Shown: piece after piece, positions 11,147 through 20,205 of the stretch
How the letters are laid out: every line of letters starts with the position of its first letter
How positions within the stretch are numbered: position 1 is the stretch's first letter
Assembly (NCBI GenBank): GCA_965203175.1
Contig: OZ241867.1
Span: forward strand, 384,001 to 448,000
Direction of reading: 5' to 3'
Source of the DNA: Candidatus Latescibacterota bacterium
Lineage (GTDB): Bacteria; Latescibacterota; UBA2968; UBA8231
DNA: 64,000 nucleotides
The notes under the pieces: generated by a model
Told to the model about the DNA's origin: nothing
Databases searched by the model: none
Seen by the model: the letters and a program-made list of their open reading frames with translations, nothing else
Translations under genes and position numbers: made by a program

Positions 11147-12202
11147 GTGCAGATTACCCGCCTCGAACGCACCGTCTGTTGCGTGCCCTTCCTCCCGGGC
11201 ATCCTACCCCCGCCCGAGTACGACGAGCCCTCGCCCGGCTATCCCGAGCCGCTCTCGGCCCGACGCCAAGACATCCTCAGGATCCACACCGACCAAGGAC
11301 TGACCGGCCTCGGCATGAGCGGACCGTACTACGGCGACCGCACAGAACAACCACCCGACCTGATCGGCAAAGACCCCAACACCTTTGAGCCACGCGCCTT
11401 GCGCGGCGGTGGCTGGGACATCGCCCTCCTCGATCTGATCGGCAAAATGATCGGCTGGCCGCTGTGCCGCATTTTCGGCGGCAAGCTGCAGGACAAGGTG
11501 CTGGTTGACTACTGGATCAGTCGGATGAGCGCCGCGGATACCGCCCGCGCGGCCCAACGCGCCGCCGAGCTGGGTTTCCACGGCATCAAGATGAAGTGCA
11601 AGTGGGAAGATGCCAACATGGAGGACCGAGTCCGCGCCGCCCTCGAAGTCGCGCCGCACCTGCGAGTAGTCCTAGACCCCAACGAGCGCTTCTACAATCT
11701 CGAAAACGCCCTCGACCTAGCCCGCCGCCTCGACGGACTCGACGTGGTCTTTGAAGATCCCTTCCCCAAAACCGATCTCAACGAATATCGCCGCCTCAAG
11801 GAAGAGACCAGCGTCCTCGTCGCCCCGCACTTCCAAAACCCCCGCCAGATCATCGACGCAGTGCATCTCGAAGCGGTTGACGCCTTCAACGTCGCGCCCT
11901 CGGATTGGGATTTTCTCGACATGGCGCGCATCGCCGCAAGCGCGGACATCCCCGTGTGGCAAGCCTCCAATGTCGATCTGGGGATTTTCGACGCCTTCCG
12001 CCTCCACGCCTCGGCCGCCGCGCCCAACTGCACCTTTGGCTCAGACCTCTGCGGCAACTTCGCGCACGAGCACAGCCTGCTCAAAGAGCCACTGGTCCAA
12101 GACGGCTACGCCATCGTGCCCACCGGCCCAGGTTTGGGCGTGGAATTGGACGAGAACGCCGTCGCCCGCTACGCAGTCTCCGCGCAGCAGTGGCCCGGCT
12201 AG
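11147..12202 (+). CDS. Mandelate racemase/muconate lactonizing enzyme family (enolase superfamily)
   Basis: DIALLDLIGK, KMK, DPNE, EDP and PTGPGLGVELD; GTG start at 11147. Confidence 0.85.
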   Translation: MQITRLERTVCCVPFLPGILPPPEYDEPSPGYPEPLSARRQDILRIHTDQGLTGLGMSGPYYGDRTEQPPDLIGKDPNTFEPRALRGGGWDIALLDLIGKMIGWPLCRIFGGKLQDKVLVDYWISRMSAADTARAAQRAAELGFHGIKMKCKWEDANMEDRVRAALEVAPHLRVVLDPNERFYNLENALDLARRLDGLDVVFEDPFPKTDLNEYRRLKEETSVLVAPHFQNPRQIIDAVHLEAVDAFNVAPSDWDFLDMARIAASADIPVWQASNVDLGIFDAFRLHASAAAPNCTFGSDLCGNFAHEHSLLKEPLVQDGYAIVPTGPGLGVELDENAVARYAVSAQQWPG

Positions 12203-12240
12203 GCCGGGATCAGCGCCTCTGCGCCAAAGATCATCGGATA
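11945..12240 (+). repeat. Direct repeat copy 1 (296 bp) spanning the enolase 3' end and the phyH 3' end
   Basis: Matches 16083-16315 joined to 17611-17673 with about 11 mismatches by manual alignment. Confidence 0.95.
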
Positions 12241-12310
12241 ATAAACCTTTAATATCAGAGAATTGGGAGCAAGGAACTCATTCGGCAGGGCTACTATGCG
12301 CTTGATACGT

Positions 12311-12339
12311 TTGACAGGTTTCAGTATGTGAAGTAAGGT
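12311..12339 (+). promoter_or_regulatory. Candidate sigma70 promoter for the STAND gene
   Basis: TTGACA-17 bp-TAAGGT in the AT-rich island leader. Confidence 0.4.
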
Positions 12340-12505
12340 ATCAATCTCTTCGCATTCTCCTGACTAATTGCTAAAAAATGCAGAAGATGAAGGGGTGCGA
12401 AAAAATAATCAGGCAAATCTCGCTCCGGTACCCTTAGCCTAGATATGTTTCGTTTCTGCTAGCGTAAAGGAGATAAGACAGATTTGTCGTTTAATAAAAT
12501 TCTTA

Positions 12506-13436
12506 GAAGCCGTCTGAAAACTATATTTTTCCCTTGATCCGTTTGAGTATCAAGTGGATCATGGCAATCTGAATCAAGGCTTCACTATGGCGGGTCAACA
12601 CCTCATAATATCTCGCATGACGACGAAAATTCATCAACCACGCAAACGTACGCTCAACGACCCAACGCCGTTTGAGTACGGTAAATCCACCGCCTTGTTT
12701 GGCGACGACTTCCAAGTCAATCTTGTGCGTCTTTTTTAGGTCGGCTACCCACGTTCGGATGGCCTGACCTTGGTAGCCGCCATCGACCCACAGTTTGCGC
12801 AAGCGGGGTACGTCGGGGGTACTATAGCGGGTCAACACCTGCTTGAGGCCGTCGCGATCATCGACATCGGCGGCGGTAACCACCACCTGTCTAAGCAAGC
12901 CCGAGGTATCAACCAACAGATGCCGTTTGCGGCCTTGAATCTTTTTACCGGCGTCATATCCGGTTGTTTTACCTTGGGTTGCCGTCTTAATCGTCTGACT
13001 GTCGATACAGCCTGCCGACGGCTGAGATACCCGGCCTTGTCGGCGACGCTCTCGTTGGGTGAGTTGATCCAACACCCGGGGCCAGACCCCTTGCAGACTC
13101 CAGCGACGAAAGGAATCATACACGGTTTTCCACGGCCCAAAACAACAAGGCAACAAAGCCCAAGGACACCCAGTCTTAGTCAAATACAAAAGGCCGTTGA
13201 CGATCTGGCGTCGATCCCGCGGGGGCCGACCCGGACCGTTCGGCCACCACCGCGAAGGCGGCAGCAACGGTTGAATCTGCTGCCATTGCGCATCGGTTAC
13301 ATCGGTAGCATATTGGCCATCAGGCGTACTCATCATGCAAGCCTTTCTATTCAGACTTTTGTAGCGAAACCTGAATATGGCCCGATGAGTACGCCGTTTC
13401 AAATGCAGACCACATCAAGGGTTTTCAGACGGCTTC
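12506..13436 (-). mobile_element. IS5 family element (IS1031-like)
   Basis: TIRs GAAGCCGTCTGAAAAC/GTTTTCAGACGGCTTC; TTA target duplication at 12503-12505 and 13437-13439. Confidence 0.92.
12521..13336 (-). CDS. IS5 family transposase
   Basis: YATDVTDAQW, TGCPW, IDSQT, GRKRHLLVD, VDGGY and RWVVERTFAW motifs. Confidence 0.92.
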   Translation of the reverse strand: MMSTPDGQYATDVTDAQWQQIQPLLPPSRWWPNGPGRPPRDRRQIVNGLLYLTKTGCPWALLPCCFGPWKTVYDSFRRWSLQGVWPRVLDQLTQRERRRQGRVSQPSAGCIDSQTIKTATQGKTTGYDAGKKIQGRKRHLLVDTSGLLRQVVVTAADVDDRDGLKQVLTRYSTPDVPRLRKLWVDGGYQGQAIRTWVADLKKTHKIDLEVVAKQGGGFTVLKRRWVVERTFAWLMNFRRHARYYEVLTRHSEALIQIAMIHLILKRIKGKI

Positions 13437-13468
13437 TTATGCGGATACGTAACGAAACGGAATCGAGT

Positions 13469-16072
13469 ATGAAACACCAACTCCTCTTCGAAAAAATCGA
13501 TAATCGTATTGTTCGCGACAAGGAGGAGGGCGACTACGCCTATTTTCACGCGTTGACTTTGAAATTGGAGTACGTCACAAAACTCGTGACCGCGGGTGTA
13601 GTTGCTTGCATCGGTGATGACGCGGACCGGAATAGGTACTCACTTGAGCACAAACTTGTCCGCGCCAATTCAGTCGGCGACTGGGTAGCAAACCTCAACA
13701 GTGCGCTGGTAGGACCACCAGCAGGCTCCCTAGATTCCAACGCACGCAACCTAGCTCGTGATTTGACGGAGCGGGTCAATTCTACAGATTGGCGGTATCA
13801 TGCTGTAATCGCTTTGAACCAAGCCGCAGAAGAGATCGGCGCTGTGGAGAAGCTGGGCACAAAAGTTGCGCTTCGCCAGTTTTTCGATATCGGGACAAGG
13901 CTCCGGAATCGGAGTCGAGGTCATGGTGCTCCTACCAACGAACAATGCAGTAAGGCTTGTCCGTTCCTCGACAAGGCCCTGAAGGAGGTCGTGTATAAAC
14001 TCAAACTATTTCAGATTCCGTGGGTATATTTGCACCGGAATCTAAGTGGGAAGTACCGAGTATCTCCGCTTTGGGGTGATGCTTCGTGTTTCGAGTATCT
14101 CAAGAGCGAGCGCAATGTGCGCCTTCCTGATAATGGAGTTTTTCTTTATCTCGATCTCCCAGTGTATGTTCCCTTGGTCTTTAGCGATACCGATGTGCTC
14201 GATATCTCTCTTCCCAATGGAAACCACCGTGGTAATACCTTTGAGGCCCTTTCGTATGTTACTAATCAGACAAAGAACGTAGACGGATCGACATGGTCAG
14301 ACCCACCAGCGCGCCTTCCTCGTAGCGAGACCGAGGGGGATACTATACTTGAACCACTGGGCAATACCTTTGCCAATTTGCCTCCCAAACCTAGCGGCTA
14401 CATTCTGCGGCGTGATCTCGAAAAGCGCCTAAAGGAAGAACTTCTGAAGACTGATAGGCATCCCATAGTTTCACTTACTGGTCCGGGGGGGATCGGCAAG
14501 ACGACCATCGCCATCGCGTCAATCGAAGATATCGCTCAACTCAAGCCAGTGCCTTATCAAGTGGTTTTGTGGATCAGTGCTCGAGATATTGACTTGCTTG
14601 AGTCAGGTCCGAAGTCTGTTTCACCTCGAGTGATTACCCAGCAGGACATCTCGCGCGCCGCCGTTGAATTACTTGAACCCGCGGATAAGTCATCGAACGA
14701 TTTTGACCCAGATACCTATTTCCAGAAATGTCTTGCTGAAGGTGCGGCTGGCACGACACTATTTGTGCTTGACAATTTTGAGACAGTGAAGAGCCCGGCG
14801 GATGTCTTCAGTTGGATTGACACCTATGTCAGGCCCCCAAACAAAGTCCTAATTACAACGAGATTTCGTGACTTCGCTGGCGATTACCCAATCGAGATTG
14901 GGGGTATGACAGATGAAGAAGCCAGTAGTCTTATCGACCAACATGCAAGATTCCTTAAAATTGGATCTCTACTGAATCCAACTTACAAAAGTGAGCTGAT
15001 TCGCGAATCTGACGGCCATCCTTATGTCATGAAAGTCCTCTTAGGGCAGGTGGTAAAAGAGCAGCGTGCTGTCAAACCGCAACGTATTATGGCCAGTGCG
15101 GATCACCTGCTGAAGGCTCTATTTGAGAGGACATACGGTGCTCTTAGCCCGGCAGGACAGCGGGTTTTTTTGCTGCTTTGTAGTTGGAGGGTATTTGTCC
15201 CCGAGGTCGCTGTAGAGGCTGTGTCAATCCGTCCTAGGAGTGAGCGATTTGGGGTTACAGAAGCTCTGGAAGAACTACGTCGGTTTTCGCTTGTTGAGCA
15301 GATTGTTTCAAAAAAAGAAGATGAACTCTTTGTGGGAGTGCCGCTGGCGGCGGCAATGTACGGACAACAGAAACTGGAGACCAGTCCCTTTAAGAGCGTG
15401 GTCGGAGAAGATCGAAAGCTTCTGATGGAGTTCGGGGCTGGTAAGCGAGAGGATGTCCATAGGGGTGTCCTCCCACGAATCGAGCGCCTCGTTCAAACTG
15501 TGGCGGTACGAGCAAGTGCTAGCCCGACAACGTTAGAGGAGAACCTACCAGTATTGGAATACCTAGCGGCAAGAGTGCCAAAGGCATATCTACAACTCGC
15601 CGATTTGGTATTGGAAGCCAGTGAGTTGGCTGACTCCACAGAGCGTGCAAAAGGGTACATTCGGAGTTTCTTGGAGAACGCGGACGCTCCTGATCGACAG
15701 GAGGCATGGCTGAAGCTTGCAGACCTGTGTCAGGTGAGTCAGGACCTAGTAGGTGAAATTCACGCGCTCAGTGAGGCCGCGCTACTACCGACAACAGATC
15801 AGGAAGATCTCGGGCGGTTTGCGAATCGTCTAAACAATCGTATGCGAGACTTCAGAGGTGAACCAGAAGAAGTGCGGGGATTTCTTGAGCTGGTCATAAC
15901 GGCGATGGAAAGGCGTTTGAAAGATCTATCAGCCACGAATTGCTCTAGACTAGCTTGGCTTCACTTAAACGTTAAGAACCCGCAACGCGCGCTAGATGTG
16001 GCGAAGATTGGAATTAAGCTCGATTCGAGTAACGATCACTGCCAAAACCTGATCCGGATACTAGATACCTGA
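13469..16072 (+). CDS. NB-ARC/STAND NTPase with N-terminal HEPN-like RxxxxxH region and C-terminal helical/TPR region
   Basis: GPGGIGKT Walker A, VLDNFE Walker B, VLITTR, GHP; RNRSRGH at 13904-13924; alternative start at 13439. Confidence 0.8.
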   Translation: MKHQLLFEKIDNRIVRDKEEGDYAYFHALTLKLEYVTKLVTAGVVACIGDDADRNRYSLEHKLVRANSVGDWVANLNSALVGPPAGSLDSNARNLARDLTERVNSTDWRYHAVIALNQAAEEIGAVEKLGTKVALRQFFDIGTRLRNRSRGHGAPTNEQCSKACPFLDKALKEVVYKLKLFQIPWVYLHRNLSGKYRVSPLWGDASCFEYLKSERNVRLPDNGVFLYLDLPVYVPLVFSDTDVLDISLPNGNHRGNTFEALSYVTNQTKNVDGSTWSDPPARLPRSETEGDTILEPLGNTFANLPPKPSGYILRRDLEKRLKEELLKTDRHPIVSLTGPGGIGKTTIAIASIEDIAQLKPVPYQVVLWISARDIDLLESGPKSVSPRVITQQDISRAAVELLEPADKSSNDFDPDTYFQKCLAEGAAGTTLFVLDNFETVKSPADVFSWIDTYVRPPNKVLITTRFRDFAGDYPIEIGGMTDEEASSLIDQHARFLKIGSLLNPTYKSELIRESDGHPYVMKVLLGQVVKEQRAVKPQRIMASADHLLKALFERTYGALSPAGQRVFLLLCSWRVFVPEVAVEAVSIRPRSERFGVTEALEELRRFSLVEQIVSKKEDELFVGVPLAAAMYGQQKLETSPFKSVVGEDRKLLMEFGAGKREDVHRGVLPRIERLVQTVAVRASASPTTLEENLPVLEYLAARVPKAYLQLADLVLEASELADSTERAKGYIRSFLENADAPDRQEAWLKLADLCQVSQDLVGEIHALSEAALLPTTDQEDLGRFANRLNNRMRDFRGEPEEVRGFLELVITAMERRLKDLSATNCSRLAWLHLNVKNPQRALDVAKIGIKLDSSNDHCQNLIRILDT

Positions 16073-16082
16073 GCTAAGCAAT

Positions 16083-16315
16083 GACATCCCCGTGTGGCAA
16101 GCCTCCAATGTCGATCTGGGAATTTTCGACGCCTTCCGCCTCCACGCCTCGGCCGCCGCGCCCAACTGCACCTTTGGCTCAGACCTCTGCGGCAACTTCG
16201 CGCACGAGCACAGCCTGCTCAAAGAGCCGCTGGTCCAAGACGGCTACGCAATCGTACCCACCGGCCCGGGTTTGGGCGTGGAATTGGACGAGGAGGCCGT
16301 CGCCCGCTATGCCCT
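16083..16315 (+). pseudogene. Direct repeat copy 2, left part: duplicated enolase 3' fragment interrupted by the TnpB element
   Basis: Near-identical to 11945-12177. Confidence 0.93.
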
Positions 16316-17610
16316 AAGAAATCACCGTGGGACTGACGGCTTTGCGCCGGTTCAGGGGGATAAGTGCAGCCTGCACGAGGGGGCCGCAGGCTCCCTGAGT
16401 GCAGGCTGATATAGCTTGACACGGTCCTGCCACATGGTCATATGTACTATTGTGAAACGGGTGATACAAATCAAGCTCCTTCCGACAGCGGAGCAGGCGG
16501 ATGCGCTGGAGCAGACGATGCGCCGCTTCAATGCCGCGTGCAACTGGGTAGCCCAAAAGGCTTTTGAGCGCCGTCTGGCCAACAGCTATGCCCTGCATAA
16601 GCTGCACTACTATGCGGTGCGCGAGCGCTTTGACCTTCCTGCTGACATCGCCATCCTAACGTTTGCCCAAGTGGCGGCCTGCTACAAGCGCGATAAGAGC
16701 AAGCACGTATCGTTTCGTCCGCTGGCGTCGATTCCCTATCGCAAAGGCGCGTTCCGCTACAAGAGCCTAACGGCTGTCAACATCAAGACGGCCGATGGCA
16801 ACCGCCACGACATCCCGATGATTATGGGCGACTACCAGGCCGAGCAGTTTGGCCATGTCAAGCTATTTGCCGAGCTGGTGCGTCGCAAGGACGGCAAATG
16901 GTTCCTGATGGCTACCGTCGAACACGACCCCGAGCCGCCGTGCGAGCCCGACGATTTCCTCGGCGTCGATCTCGGGATGGAGAACCTCGTCACGGATTCT
17001 GATGGCACGATCCACCCCGGCGGCGACGTTGAAGCGGTGCGCATCAAATGCCAGATACTCAAACAGACTCTTCAATCGGCCGCCGACAAAGCAGCCAATC
17101 ACAGACGACGTAAGCGTATTCGTAAGAAGCTCAAGCGCACCGCCGAGCGCGAGTCTCGCTTTCGTCGCAATACGAACCATGTCCTCTCCAAGCGTATCGT
17201 TGGGAAGGCCAAAGACACCGGCCGCGGCATCGCTCTTGAAGACCTCAGAGGCATCCGCGACCGGATACGGTTTCGCAAGCCCCAACGTAACCGCATAGGT
17301 AGCTGGGGGTTCGACCAGCTCAGGCAGTTTGTCGCCTACAAGGCCGAACAGGCCGGGGTGATGCTCAAGCTGATTGATCCAGCGTACACCTCTCAGACCT
17401 GTTCGTCCTGTGGACATGTCGAGCGCGGTAATCGCCCCTCTCAATCCCGGTTTTGTTGCAAGCAGTGTGGGCATCAAGCCCATGCCGATTGCAATGCCGC
17501 CCGGAATATCCGGGCAAGGGCTCTCGTCAACGAGCCTATAGTTTCGGCCTATTCCGCCGCGGCGGGGTGAGCCAGGGACAAGCTGACTGCTTTAGCTGTC
17601 AGGGGTTGAC
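16316..17610 (+). mobile_element. IS200/IS605 family tnpB-only (IS1341-like) element
   Basis: Removing it restores the 296-bp repeat length; LE hairpin 16333-16355 and RE hairpin 17583-17602 share CTGAC.GCTTT; ends in TGAC; no TSD; no tnpA. Confidence 0.9.
16452..17570 (+). CDS. tnpB: RNA-guided endonuclease TnpB
   Basis: RuvC motifs GVDLG, IALEDL and HADCNAARNI; Zn finger CSSC/CKQC; GTG start. Confidence 0.93.
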   Translation: MKRVIQIKLLPTAEQADALEQTMRRFNAACNWVAQKAFERRLANSYALHKLHYYAVRERFDLPADIAILTFAQVAACYKRDKSKHVSFRPLASIPYRKGAFRYKSLTAVNIKTADGNRHDIPMIMGDYQAEQFGHVKLFAELVRRKDGKWFLMATVEHDPEPPCEPDDFLGVDLGMENLVTDSDGTIHPGGDVEAVRIKCQILKQTLQSAADKAANHRRRKRIRKKLKRTAERESRFRRNTNHVLSKRIVGKAKDTGRGIALEDLRGIRDRIRFRKPQRNRIGSWGFDQLRQFVAYKAEQAGVMLKLIDPAYTSQTCSSCGHVERGNRPSQSRFCCKQCGHQAHADCNAARNIRARALVNEPIVSAYSAAAG

Positions 17611-17673
17611 CTCCGCGCAGCAGTGGCCCGGCTAGGCCGGGACCAGCGCCTCTGCGCCAAAGATCATCGGATA
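17611..17673 (+). repeat. Direct repeat copy 2, right part
   Basis: Matches 12178-12240 with one mismatch. Confidence 0.93.
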
Positions 17674-18438: not shown

Positions 18439-18558
18439 TGTTCTGGGACTTATATACATGACTAATCACGTATACCTTTCTATGAAGTAGGATCGTCTCT
18501 ACGGACCGATCCTGATGGTATATATCCTCCCTTCATCTCGGCGATAATCCCCGCCGAG
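18439..18558 (-). ncRNA. Candidate omegaRNA scaffold of the second tnpB
   Basis: Three consecutive hairpins at 18537-18558, 18489-18513 and 18453-18474 overlapping and following the tnpB 3' end. Confidence 0.5.
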
Positions 18559-19628
18559 TCAGAGGTTAGTCCTCTGTGAAGGATATTGACCGCAGCATTG
18601 ACGTCTCGGTCTAAGACCATACCACAGGCATAACAGTGATACATCCTCTGGTCTAGTCCTATTTTGTCTCGGGGTATGCTACCACACCCTGAGCACTGCT
18701 GCGTCGTATTGCGGGGATCTACTTTGATAACCCACCCACCAGCACTCTCAGCCTTGTAGGTCAGGCATTGCACAAAGAATCCCCATTGTTGCTCCAGTAT
18801 GGATCGGGATAGGTGTCTATTCTTCACCATATTGGGTATCTTCAGGTCTTCTACTATAAACCGGCAGCCGAACTCTTTGAGCAAAGCGCTAGTGAGCTCA
18901 TGTACTTTGCCCTGCTCGCGCTCTGTAACACGCTGCCATGCCTTAGCCAACCACCGCCGCTTCTTCTCCCTGTTGTTCGAGCCCTTCTTTGCCCTCGATA
19001 GGATACGTTGGCGGCGCTTGAGCTCTGTCCTGTCGACGACGTTCTTGGGCATTTTATGACCATTGGACAAAACAGCTCTATCCTTGATGCCTAAGTCGAT
19101 GCCCACAGGAGGACGTATGTCCAGCACGTCCGGCTCGGCGACCTCCATGACAAACTGGAGCTTAACGCGTCTCGGTGTGCGAACGACACGCACCACCTTG
19201 ACTTTGCCATCAGGAAGAGTTTCCCTAAAACGCAGACGACCGATGCCTTTGATAGAGAATGAGTAATACTTGCCCGACGATTTGATCTTCGCAGGCGTAG
19301 GATCCTCAAAGGAGTGGATGCCGGTGCGCCAGCTCTTGAAACGAGGATAACCGCCGCGCCTAAAGAAAGACTGATAAGCACGGTCTAAACGACGAAGGAT
19401 AGAGCGTTGTATCCTAGCAGGAAACCGACTCCATTGTGGCTCTTTACGGCGTTCCGTCAGCTTGGCTTGCTGCTGCAAGTACGTAACAGACCGCTCCTCT
19501 GTCTCCCAAGCCTGCTTGCGCTCAGCCAAGCTCTCATTATACAGCCAGCGAGACTGATTGAGAAAATCAGCCAAGTTAGCATGAGCACCACGGCTTAGGT
19601 AGGCTTTTCTAGTATAGGTGCGTAGCAC
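18480..19628 (-). CDS. tnpB: RNA-guided endonuclease TnpB (second, divergent)
   Basis: GYPRFK, GIDLG, IVEDL, CSGC/CYAC, DRDVNAAVNI. Confidence 0.93.
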   Translation of the reverse strand: MLRTYTRKAYLSRGAHANLADFLNQSRWLYNESLAERKQAWETEERSVTYLQQQAKLTERRKEPQWSRFPARIQRSILRRLDRAYQSFFRRGGYPRFKSWRTGIHSFEDPTPAKIKSSGKYYSFSIKGIGRLRFRETLPDGKVKVVRVVRTPRRVKLQFVMEVAEPDVLDIRPPVGIDLGIKDRAVLSNGHKMPKNVVDRTELKRRQRILSRAKKGSNNREKKRRWLAKAWQRVTEREQGKVHELTSALLKEFGCRFIVEDLKIPNMVKNRHLSRSILEQQWGFFVQCLTYKAESAGGWVIKVDPRNTTQQCSGCGSIPRDKIGLDQRMYHCYACGMVLDRDVNAAVNILHRGLTSDSAGIIAEMKGGYIPSGSVRRDDPTS

Positions 19629-19648
19629 GCTCTATCCTTGCTTAGTTA

Positions 19649-20128
19649 ACGTGAGTTCGGTATAAGGTGAGGGACTCCTTTTTGGCTAAATTTAGGTATG
19701 CCGTTCCTAAAACCCAGCCATCGAGGAGCCCTCGTGATGAATTTAGTTGAATTGTTTTGCCACGTCGATGATTTTTGCCAAGCCTTTGAAGTCGACTGGA
19801 TACGCCACCAGTTAACGACCGGCCATCGCCGGCGGCGGCGGACCGGTCGGCTGTGCCTGAGCGAGATTATGACACTGTTGATTTGGTTTCATCAGTCGCA
19901 CTACCGCACGTTCAAAGCCTTCTACCAGCACCATGTATGTATCCACCTACGCGGTGCGTTTCCGGGGTTGGTTAGCTATGGGCGCTTTGTCGAGCTAATC
20001 GAGCACACAAGGCATCGCAGCCTCGTCAACTTTATGGTCAATATCCTACGTGGACTGATTGCCTATTGTCATCAGCCTAAAAATCCAGCAACCGCTCCGA
20101 TTGCAAGCGGCTTAACCCGAACTCACGT
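19649..20128 (+). mobile_element. Internally deleted IS982 family element
   Basis: TIRs ACGTGAGTTCGG/CCGAACTCACGT; TAGTTA duplicated at 19643-19648 and 20129-20134; ORF fuses LFCHVDDFC...SYGRFVEL to IEHTRHRS, so the DDE core is missing. Confidence 0.88.
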
Positions 20129-20205
20129 TAGTTACGAATATAAGACCCCAAATTTTCCTACCTTTCTCCCGGCTCGTCCGCTCCGTTCCAAACGAGGAAT
20201 CCACC

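Follow-up and report, generated by a model that had tools for sequence, protein, structure and literature searches.

A HEPN-like/NB-ARC/TPR-like protein encoded in a low-GC cassette of a Latescibacterota genome represents a widespread, unnamed family of predicted antiphage receptors

Results

The gene and its domain order

The window analysed here, a 64,000-nucleotide stretch of contig OZ241867.1 from a Candidatus Latescibacterota bacterium, carries an 867-amino-acid open reading frame (ORF; P0001) at 13469–16072 on the forward strand. From Pfam matches, an AlphaFold2 model and family conservation, its product is a HEPN-like domain, a beta domain, an NB-ARC STAND domain, a winged helix and a TPR-like tail, in that order. 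An initial annotation, made from the sequence alone, had proposed this frame, and its start is backed by homologues: of 121 aligned sequences, the query counted, 104 begin in register with position 13469. An alternative frame of 1100 amino acids starting at 12770 was rejected because it is open upstream merely by passing through an insertion sequence (IS) of the IS5 family. The annotation had also described the gene as the only cargo of a low-GC cassette; it is otherwise the sole protein cargo, but the IS5-family element (12506–13436) lies inside the cassette as well. The GC content of the gene is 0.504 against 0.59 for the genome, and at third codon positions it is 0.50 against 0.81 in the neighbouring enolase-family gene. 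In two public runs from a single study, contigs span 13407/13410–16112 without mismatch, an agreement that is not independent because the runs possibly represent the source sample.

The AlphaFold2 models are confident (mean predicted local distance difference test score 94.4 for the full length and 96.2 for residues 1–290). They begin with an all-helical region, residues 1–183 (13469–14017), followed by a beta-rich domain and linker without a Pfam family, residues 184–295 (14018–14353). What the annotation took for a single N-terminal region of about 280 residues consists of two domains. Next come the STAND nucleotide-binding domain (14366–14908), a helical domain with a GHP motif (15014–15022) that together with a winged-helix domain occupies 14909–15388, and a helical arm with a short TPR-like putative sensor (15389–16069), all on the forward strand. 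The winged helix is assigned from its helix-helix-helix-hairpin pattern.

Walker A, Walker B, a sensor-1 T-x-R, GxP and a winged helix place the nucleotide-binding module with the STAND NTPases of the NB-ARC/AP-ATPase type. GPGGIGKT, VLDNFE, ITTR and GHP, all noted in the initial annotation, are found in the ORF, with Walker A at 14480–14503, Walker B at about 14759–14782 and the sensor-1 ITTR at 14852–14863. Pfam places NB-ARC over residues 319–533 (E 2.5e-10; 40.5 bits, over the cut-off); a NACHT assignment was rejected, the NACHT profile reaching 18 bits against a cut-off of 26.7. Across 104 of 104 full-length members, G338, G340, G341, G343, K344, T345, D435, E438, T463 and R465 are invariant, as is the H-P-Y of the GHP motif, so selection acts on the NTPase switch. 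The family profile also matches the STAND proteins AfsR and PH0952, and the structures nearest to the full model are STAND proteins, with matches to PH0952, CED-4, Avs3, Apaf-1 and plant resistosomes.

The C-terminal tail had been read as a TPR sensor, and the family profile does match consensus TPR proteins over approximately residues 689–776 (E 1.2e-8). The tail is the least conserved region, with a mean pairwise identity of 0.31 against 0.48 for the NTPase, and the whole region C-terminal to the nucleotide-binding domain spans about 390 residues or less.

Conserved motifs in the HEPN-like N-terminus

Two motifs mark the helical region as a predicted ribonuclease (RNase) domain. E34-x3-K38 (13568–13582), corresponding to the second HEPN motif, lies in helix 2 (residues 22–46), and the predicted active-site motif R146-N147-x4-H152, an R-x5-H, is at the end of helix 3 (residues 136–148). 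The latter had been reported as LRNRSRGH at 13904–13924; RNRSRGH (R146–H152) occupies those positions, and the leading L is encoded by 13901–13903. Such a motif in one sequence is uninformative, because among 5000 shuffles of residues 1–290 R-x4-6-H occurred in 79% and R[NDH]-x3-5-H in 20%; only conservation makes it real. Conservation of the R/H pair in homologues had been set beforehand as a test of the HEPN proposal. Among distant representatives the R is kept in 147 of 147, the N in 146 of 147 (D in the remaining one) and the H in 145 of 146, while E34 is kept in 144 of 145 and K38 in 145 of 147; E34-x3-K38 and the R/H pair are invariant in 80 of 80 members.

The structural evidence points the same way with less force. 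When the model was searched against 48,161 chains with VIA-align, HEPN-domain proteins made up 11 of the top 17 rows, seven of them labelled as such by title or by the 2013 HEPN paper (PMC3710099) and the other four taken to be such. The fold match is weak taken alone; residues 1–290 have no Pfam match, none of the Pfam HEPN families is matched in the 80 members, and searches by sequence or profile tied it to no curated HEPN family. Weak scores and missing links are what one would see if this were a defence gene whose N-terminus is not an RNase, namely a four-helix bundle that resembles HEPN and binds RNA, a nucleotide or a host protein. We consider this very unlikely: without catalysis there is little to account for E-x3-K and RN-x4-H being almost invariant and lying where expected along the helices, and the motif tends to be lost in non-catalytic HEPN domains. 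In both sequence and secondary structure the N-terminus agrees with HEPN proteins, in support of the HEPN-like effector proposed in the initial annotation.

No profile match to the Swt1-like HEPN domain (PF18731) was seen: hhalign against a shallow set of 30 sequences gave 0.7%, a value inside the range of the controls, and a PF18731 search of the window genome returned nothing. Separately, Swt1-like HEPN proteins (L153–L182), mostly of about 1110 amino acids, occur in 49 of 168 genomes of the phylum, the window genome being without one.

A scattered family whose N-terminal module recurs in other proteins

The family is widespread and unnamed. A homologue search that scored 8000 candidates recovered 2267 relatives, of which the top 120 are 828–897 amino acids long and 60–94% identical. 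Searching with residues 1–280 gave 500 representatives at the 50% level; among the best 150 of these the five-part architecture is complete in 82, the rest being mostly fragments, with five that have a different C-terminus. Carriers are scattered across Binatia, Chromohalobacter, Fibrobacteraceae, Deltaproteobacteria, Prosthecobacter, another verrucomicrobium, Ralstonia and E. coli, and nine IMG/VR contigs carry a member, two further weak matches excluded. No match was found in 40 relatives or in 167 other genomes of the phylum, and in the class of the Chromohalobacter locus the family is present in the seed genome only (1 of 400 genomes). Judged by these sequence distributions, the gene is accessory, rare and passed on laterally. 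Homologues that are split or broken by an IS also occur (L007:6013–10760; NZ_CP155589.1 and NZ_CP155592.1), as is expected of a costly accessory gene.

The HEPN and beta domains travel together. With E, K, R, N and H kept, the pair also stands ahead of a NERD-type/UvrD-like helicase, a PDC-S02 N-terminal domain, an FGE-sulfatase domain and, in two proteins, tails of unknown type (P0129, P0131, P0210, P0123 and P0146), all candidates for further single-gene defence systems. Because its motifs stay intact while its C-terminal partners change, the pair reads as an exchangeable effector. The reciprocal arrangement, a STAND and TPR half joined to another effector, did not turn up in searches that were ranked by full-length score and so were poorly suited to reveal it. 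One family member, P0270, has a 400-residue C-terminal extension past the TPR-like region and no Pfam match at 1e-5 besides NB-ARC.

Genomic settings of the homologues

When 736 ORFs from 98 loci were clustered, no recurrent partner gene emerged, in keeping with the earlier proposal of a stand-alone, one-gene system; the largest cluster, type I restriction-modification (R-M), covered eight loci. Of 335 non-redundant flanking ORFs of at least 150 amino acids within 5 kb, the 126 nearest were scanned with Pfam and 106 chosen ones with PADLOC; Pfam was also run on 43 locus ORFs, some of them repeats and the L093 homologue among them, and the other flanking ORFs were compared by BLAST clustering only. 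Defence neighbours were counted by hand as R-M types I–IV, BrxL, LmuB, AbiEii, S_4TM and PDC-S06, leaving out the broken or remote loci L007, L097 and L098. By this count a defence gene lies within 5 kb at 18 of 85 non-redundant loci, at 12 of the 35 whose flank is 6 kb or longer, and at 27 of 85 when looser matches are admitted. The published background for complete defence systems within 5 kb, 0.0153 in the accessible text of PMC13581612, serves as a comparison and not as a test, because that measure is stricter than our hand count. The association is weaker for the subclade nearest to the window protein: distant homologues supply 16 of the 18 loci, and the nearer subclade only L008 and L025.

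Some placements are more telling. In E. coli, WP_122987424 (34% identity over 868 aligned columns, full length, motifs intact) is the sole gene between psu and int in a P4-like satellite at tRNA-Leu, and in the IMG/VR provirus L093 the gene follows P2 gpA and precedes the portal and terminase genes. The P4 psu–int and P2 gpA–portal sites are two antiviral hotspots in the available portion of Rousset et al. 2022 (PMC9122126). At L032 and L082 the gene lies within a type I R-M operon. Homologues thus occupy defence-associated settings, the P4 and P2 hotspots and R-M islands, in line with the defence system proposed in the initial annotation.

These settings bear on two other readings. The first is that the gene has no part in phage defence: it would encode a toxin, serving selfish addiction or a stress response, or a signalling STAND, and would build up in mobile regions. 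The majority of loci have no recognised defence neighbour, defence and non-defence clades are interspersed among STAND proteins, and the window gene sits in what looks like an insertion whose target duplication is long (described below), a form typical of selfish R-M genes in the sections available of PMC2853133. We nevertheless find this quite unlikely, given that the P2 and P4 hotspots are occupied, no antitoxin or partner is conserved over the clustered loci, and Pfam and NCBIfam scans of the protein reveal no DNA-binding output domain.

The second is an antiphage STAND whose trigger is not a phage protein. Either the short TPR-like tail or the beta domain would then respond to nucleic acid, to a nucleotide or to the inhibition of a host protein, for instance the R-M system frequently found next to the gene, as a guard in the manner of PrrC or PARIS. 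Several observations would suit it: repeated placement inside or beside type I R-M operons, the extension on one homologue, the joining of the HEPN and beta module to a helicase, and a post-NTPase region that falls below the 400-residue minimum of the sensors analysed in Lee et al. 2026 (PMC13581612, as far as accessible). On the other hand, the window, P4 and P2 copies have no adjacent R-M gene, the tail is the most variable part, as in protein-binding sensors, and in the accessible parts of that paper those characterised Avs families whose triggers are known bind phage proteins. This second reading seems unlikely to us, and an antiphage receptor that senses a phage product remains our preferred one.

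Comparison with described systems

Gao et al. 2022 reportedly described the Avs (AVAST) family of STAND receptors. Members Avs1–24, as presented in the available text of Lee et al. 2026 (PMC13581612), share with the window family an effector–STAND–TPR order in one gene, intact NTPase motifs and a location in defence islands or prophages. The 15 effector-mutant constructs given there for Avs7, 8 and 10–21 alter Q/E-x-K, D or C residues or are deletions, and none is an R/H pair. In the parts available, that survey formed its 90 sensor clusters only from sensors of 400 residues or more, and because the region after the NTPase here is about 390 residues or less, the family may have been left out. 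A match to Avs22–24 or to its sequence tables would remove most of the novelty; seven supplementary files of that paper, which seem to be mostly source data, do not contain the family's motifs. PADLOC 2.0 Avs models had no match for the window protein, 57 N-terminal fragments or three full-length homologues, and PADLOC and NCBIfam gave only weak cross-matches for the window protein. The check proposed in the initial annotation thus leaves the protein unnamed by any PADLOC model, in line with its suggestion that the protein is possibly not among named Avs types, for the part of those types so covered.

The HEPN–STAND–TPR architecture itself has been in print since 2013: Table 1 of PMC3710099 has a Swt1-like HEPN domain fused to a STAND ATPase, TPR and S1, predicted active. 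Compared with those proteins, by their description only, the window family lacks the S1/OB domain, has an additional beta domain and shows no detectable Swt1-like HEPN similarity. In the text available of Kibby et al. on NACHT proteins of bacteria (bioRxiv 2022.07.19.500537), HEPN is one of the predicted effectors of NLR-related proteins; the NTPase here is NB-ARC and not NACHT. The phage-activated HEPN RNases RnlA/LsoA, Csm6 and HepS, whose structures are among our fold matches, and DS-11 resemble the sensor-gated HEPN RNase predicted here, but gating in them falls to an antitoxin, to a cyclic nucleotide or to a small binding domain, whereas a STAND switch would do so here. The accessible portions of PMC13092281, PMC8195603, PMC13586616 and bioRxiv 2024.07.02.601686 describe no defence test of a HEPN–STAND–TPR protein.

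The E. coli homologue has appeared in print without an assigned effector. Among the P4 and P2 hotspot NLR-like proteins of Rousset et al. 2022, which include a TIR-NLR (PMC9122126), WP_122987424 has two entries in Table S1A, labelled 'NB-ARC' and placed in the P4 hotspot; among the supplements searched the accession occurs in S1A only, and the NB-ARC entries of the curated Table S1B do not include it. The effectors named in the available text are TIR, SIR2 and DNases, none assigned to this protein. A separate entry of Table S1B, system 63, is an 808-residue 'NB-ARC/NACHT/TPR_MalT' protein found 13 times in the P4 hotspot; by eye it has an RN-x4-H-G motif at a similar distance ahead of its NTPase in the sequence available, and is possibly a sister HEPN–STAND family.

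Proposed mechanism and significance

By computation, the domain order is as described above, the ATP-binding and HEPN motifs are intact, there is no partner gene, and the family has a patchy, mobile distribution that includes defence hotspots. Taken together these features make it probable that the gene encodes a single-gene, NLR-like (Avs-type) antiphage receptor with an RNase effector. Its trigger, oligomer, substrate and protective effect are modelled here on Avs proteins, as described in the accessible parts of PMC13581612, and on HEPN RNases. At rest the protein would be a self-inhibited monomer with bound nucleotide. A product of the phage, most likely one of its conserved proteins, would attach to the TPR-like tail. 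Binding would let the STAND module exchange nucleotide and oligomerise, and the oligomer would pair HEPN domains to form the R-x5-H active site. The paired domains may then cut host RNA, phage RNA or both (tRNA, rRNA or mRNA), so that translation stops and infection is aborted. The beta domain, we speculate, probably keeps the HEPN domain off before activation.

A more far-reaching proposal is possible, although we lean somewhat against it: that these proteins form an unnamed NLR-like clade which converts pattern recognition into RNA cleavage through a new HEPN subfamily and an unclassified beta domain. Their effector would be a portable plug, also carried on helicase, PDC-S02-type and FGE-sulfatase sensors; their short sensor would have been missed by the largest STAND survey; and their phage target or ligand class may lie beyond that of any characterised Avs.

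The family is very probably antiphage, and it offers a directly testable case of the RNase output that has been predicted for STAND receptors since 2013, with one gene and clear predicted catalytic residues. In the STAND receptors with effector mutants that we compared, as far as the sources extend, killing is by DNase-type or single-aspartate enzymes. If the proposed mechanism is true, it would reveal the way in which an oligomeric STAND controls a dimeric HEPN site, a protein-triggered RNase would be gained and a new phage pattern might emerge. Such a result would extend the Avs/NLR picture and not overturn it, the concept itself being unsurprising. The E. coli homologue in a P4 satellite is a ready entry to existing phage panels and phage-gene trigger libraries.

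The window cassette and neighbouring mobile elements

The insert (12241–16082) comprises a leader, the IS5-family element and the gene, and contains no integrase. It is bracketed by a target duplication of 296 bp. Copy 1 (11945–12240, forward strand) contains the 3′ end of the enolase-superfamily gene and downstream bases; the first part of copy 2 (16083–16312, forward strand) is 96.5% identical to it, and its last 63 bp (17611–17673, forward strand) run on into the sequence found after the single copy in relatives. Over the first 230 bp the copies differ at eight sites, neither being clearly closer to the relatives. Between the two parts of copy 2 lies a TnpB-only IS200/IS605-family element (16313–17610, forward strand), which is a later, separate insertion; a contig from run X3 joins 16313 to 17612, the TnpB element being missing. 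Among 30 congeners searched, all 25 loci that match the flanking gene over its full length show an empty site with one copy and no insert. One run has the filled site plus a contig that joins 12177 to 17611, an empty site that comes either from a co-resident strain or from excision.

Because a long imperfect repeat brackets a low-GC insert without an integrase, the cassette fits what Furuta et al. 2010 (PMC2853133) call 'insertion with long target duplication'. In the accessible text of that paper such insertions likewise have a low-GC gene, no integrase and direct repeats that are long (about 46 to 420 bp) and imperfect, but their cargo is R-M genes where here it is a STAND gene.

Upstream of the gene, an AT-rich region of 265 bp (12241–12505; GC 0.39) is the presumed promoter region, although no sigma-70 consensus was found on its forward strand. 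The IS5-family element (reverse strand; transposase 12521–13402) has perfect terminal inverted repeats with TTA on both sides, and two more full-length copies at 94% are present in the genome. It separates the AT-rich region from the gene, ending 32 nt ahead of the ATG, and may alter expression of the gene.

Over the whole genome (G000:C1) we counted 109 nearby direct-repeat pairs of 80–1500 bp, several of which enclose lower-GC cargo of one or two genes (for example 2327919–2330135, 4084134–4085446, 2185626–2188787 and 3141739–3143710). The gene next to the cassette is flanked by two different TnpB-only IS200/IS605 elements, that at 16313–17610 and another at 18480–19628, both missing there in congener loci. 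Beyond them, a short single-copy element at 19640–20140 with 20-bp inverted repeats (19647–19666 and 20111–20130) and a 173-amino-acid ORF without a Pfam match is probably an IS remnant.
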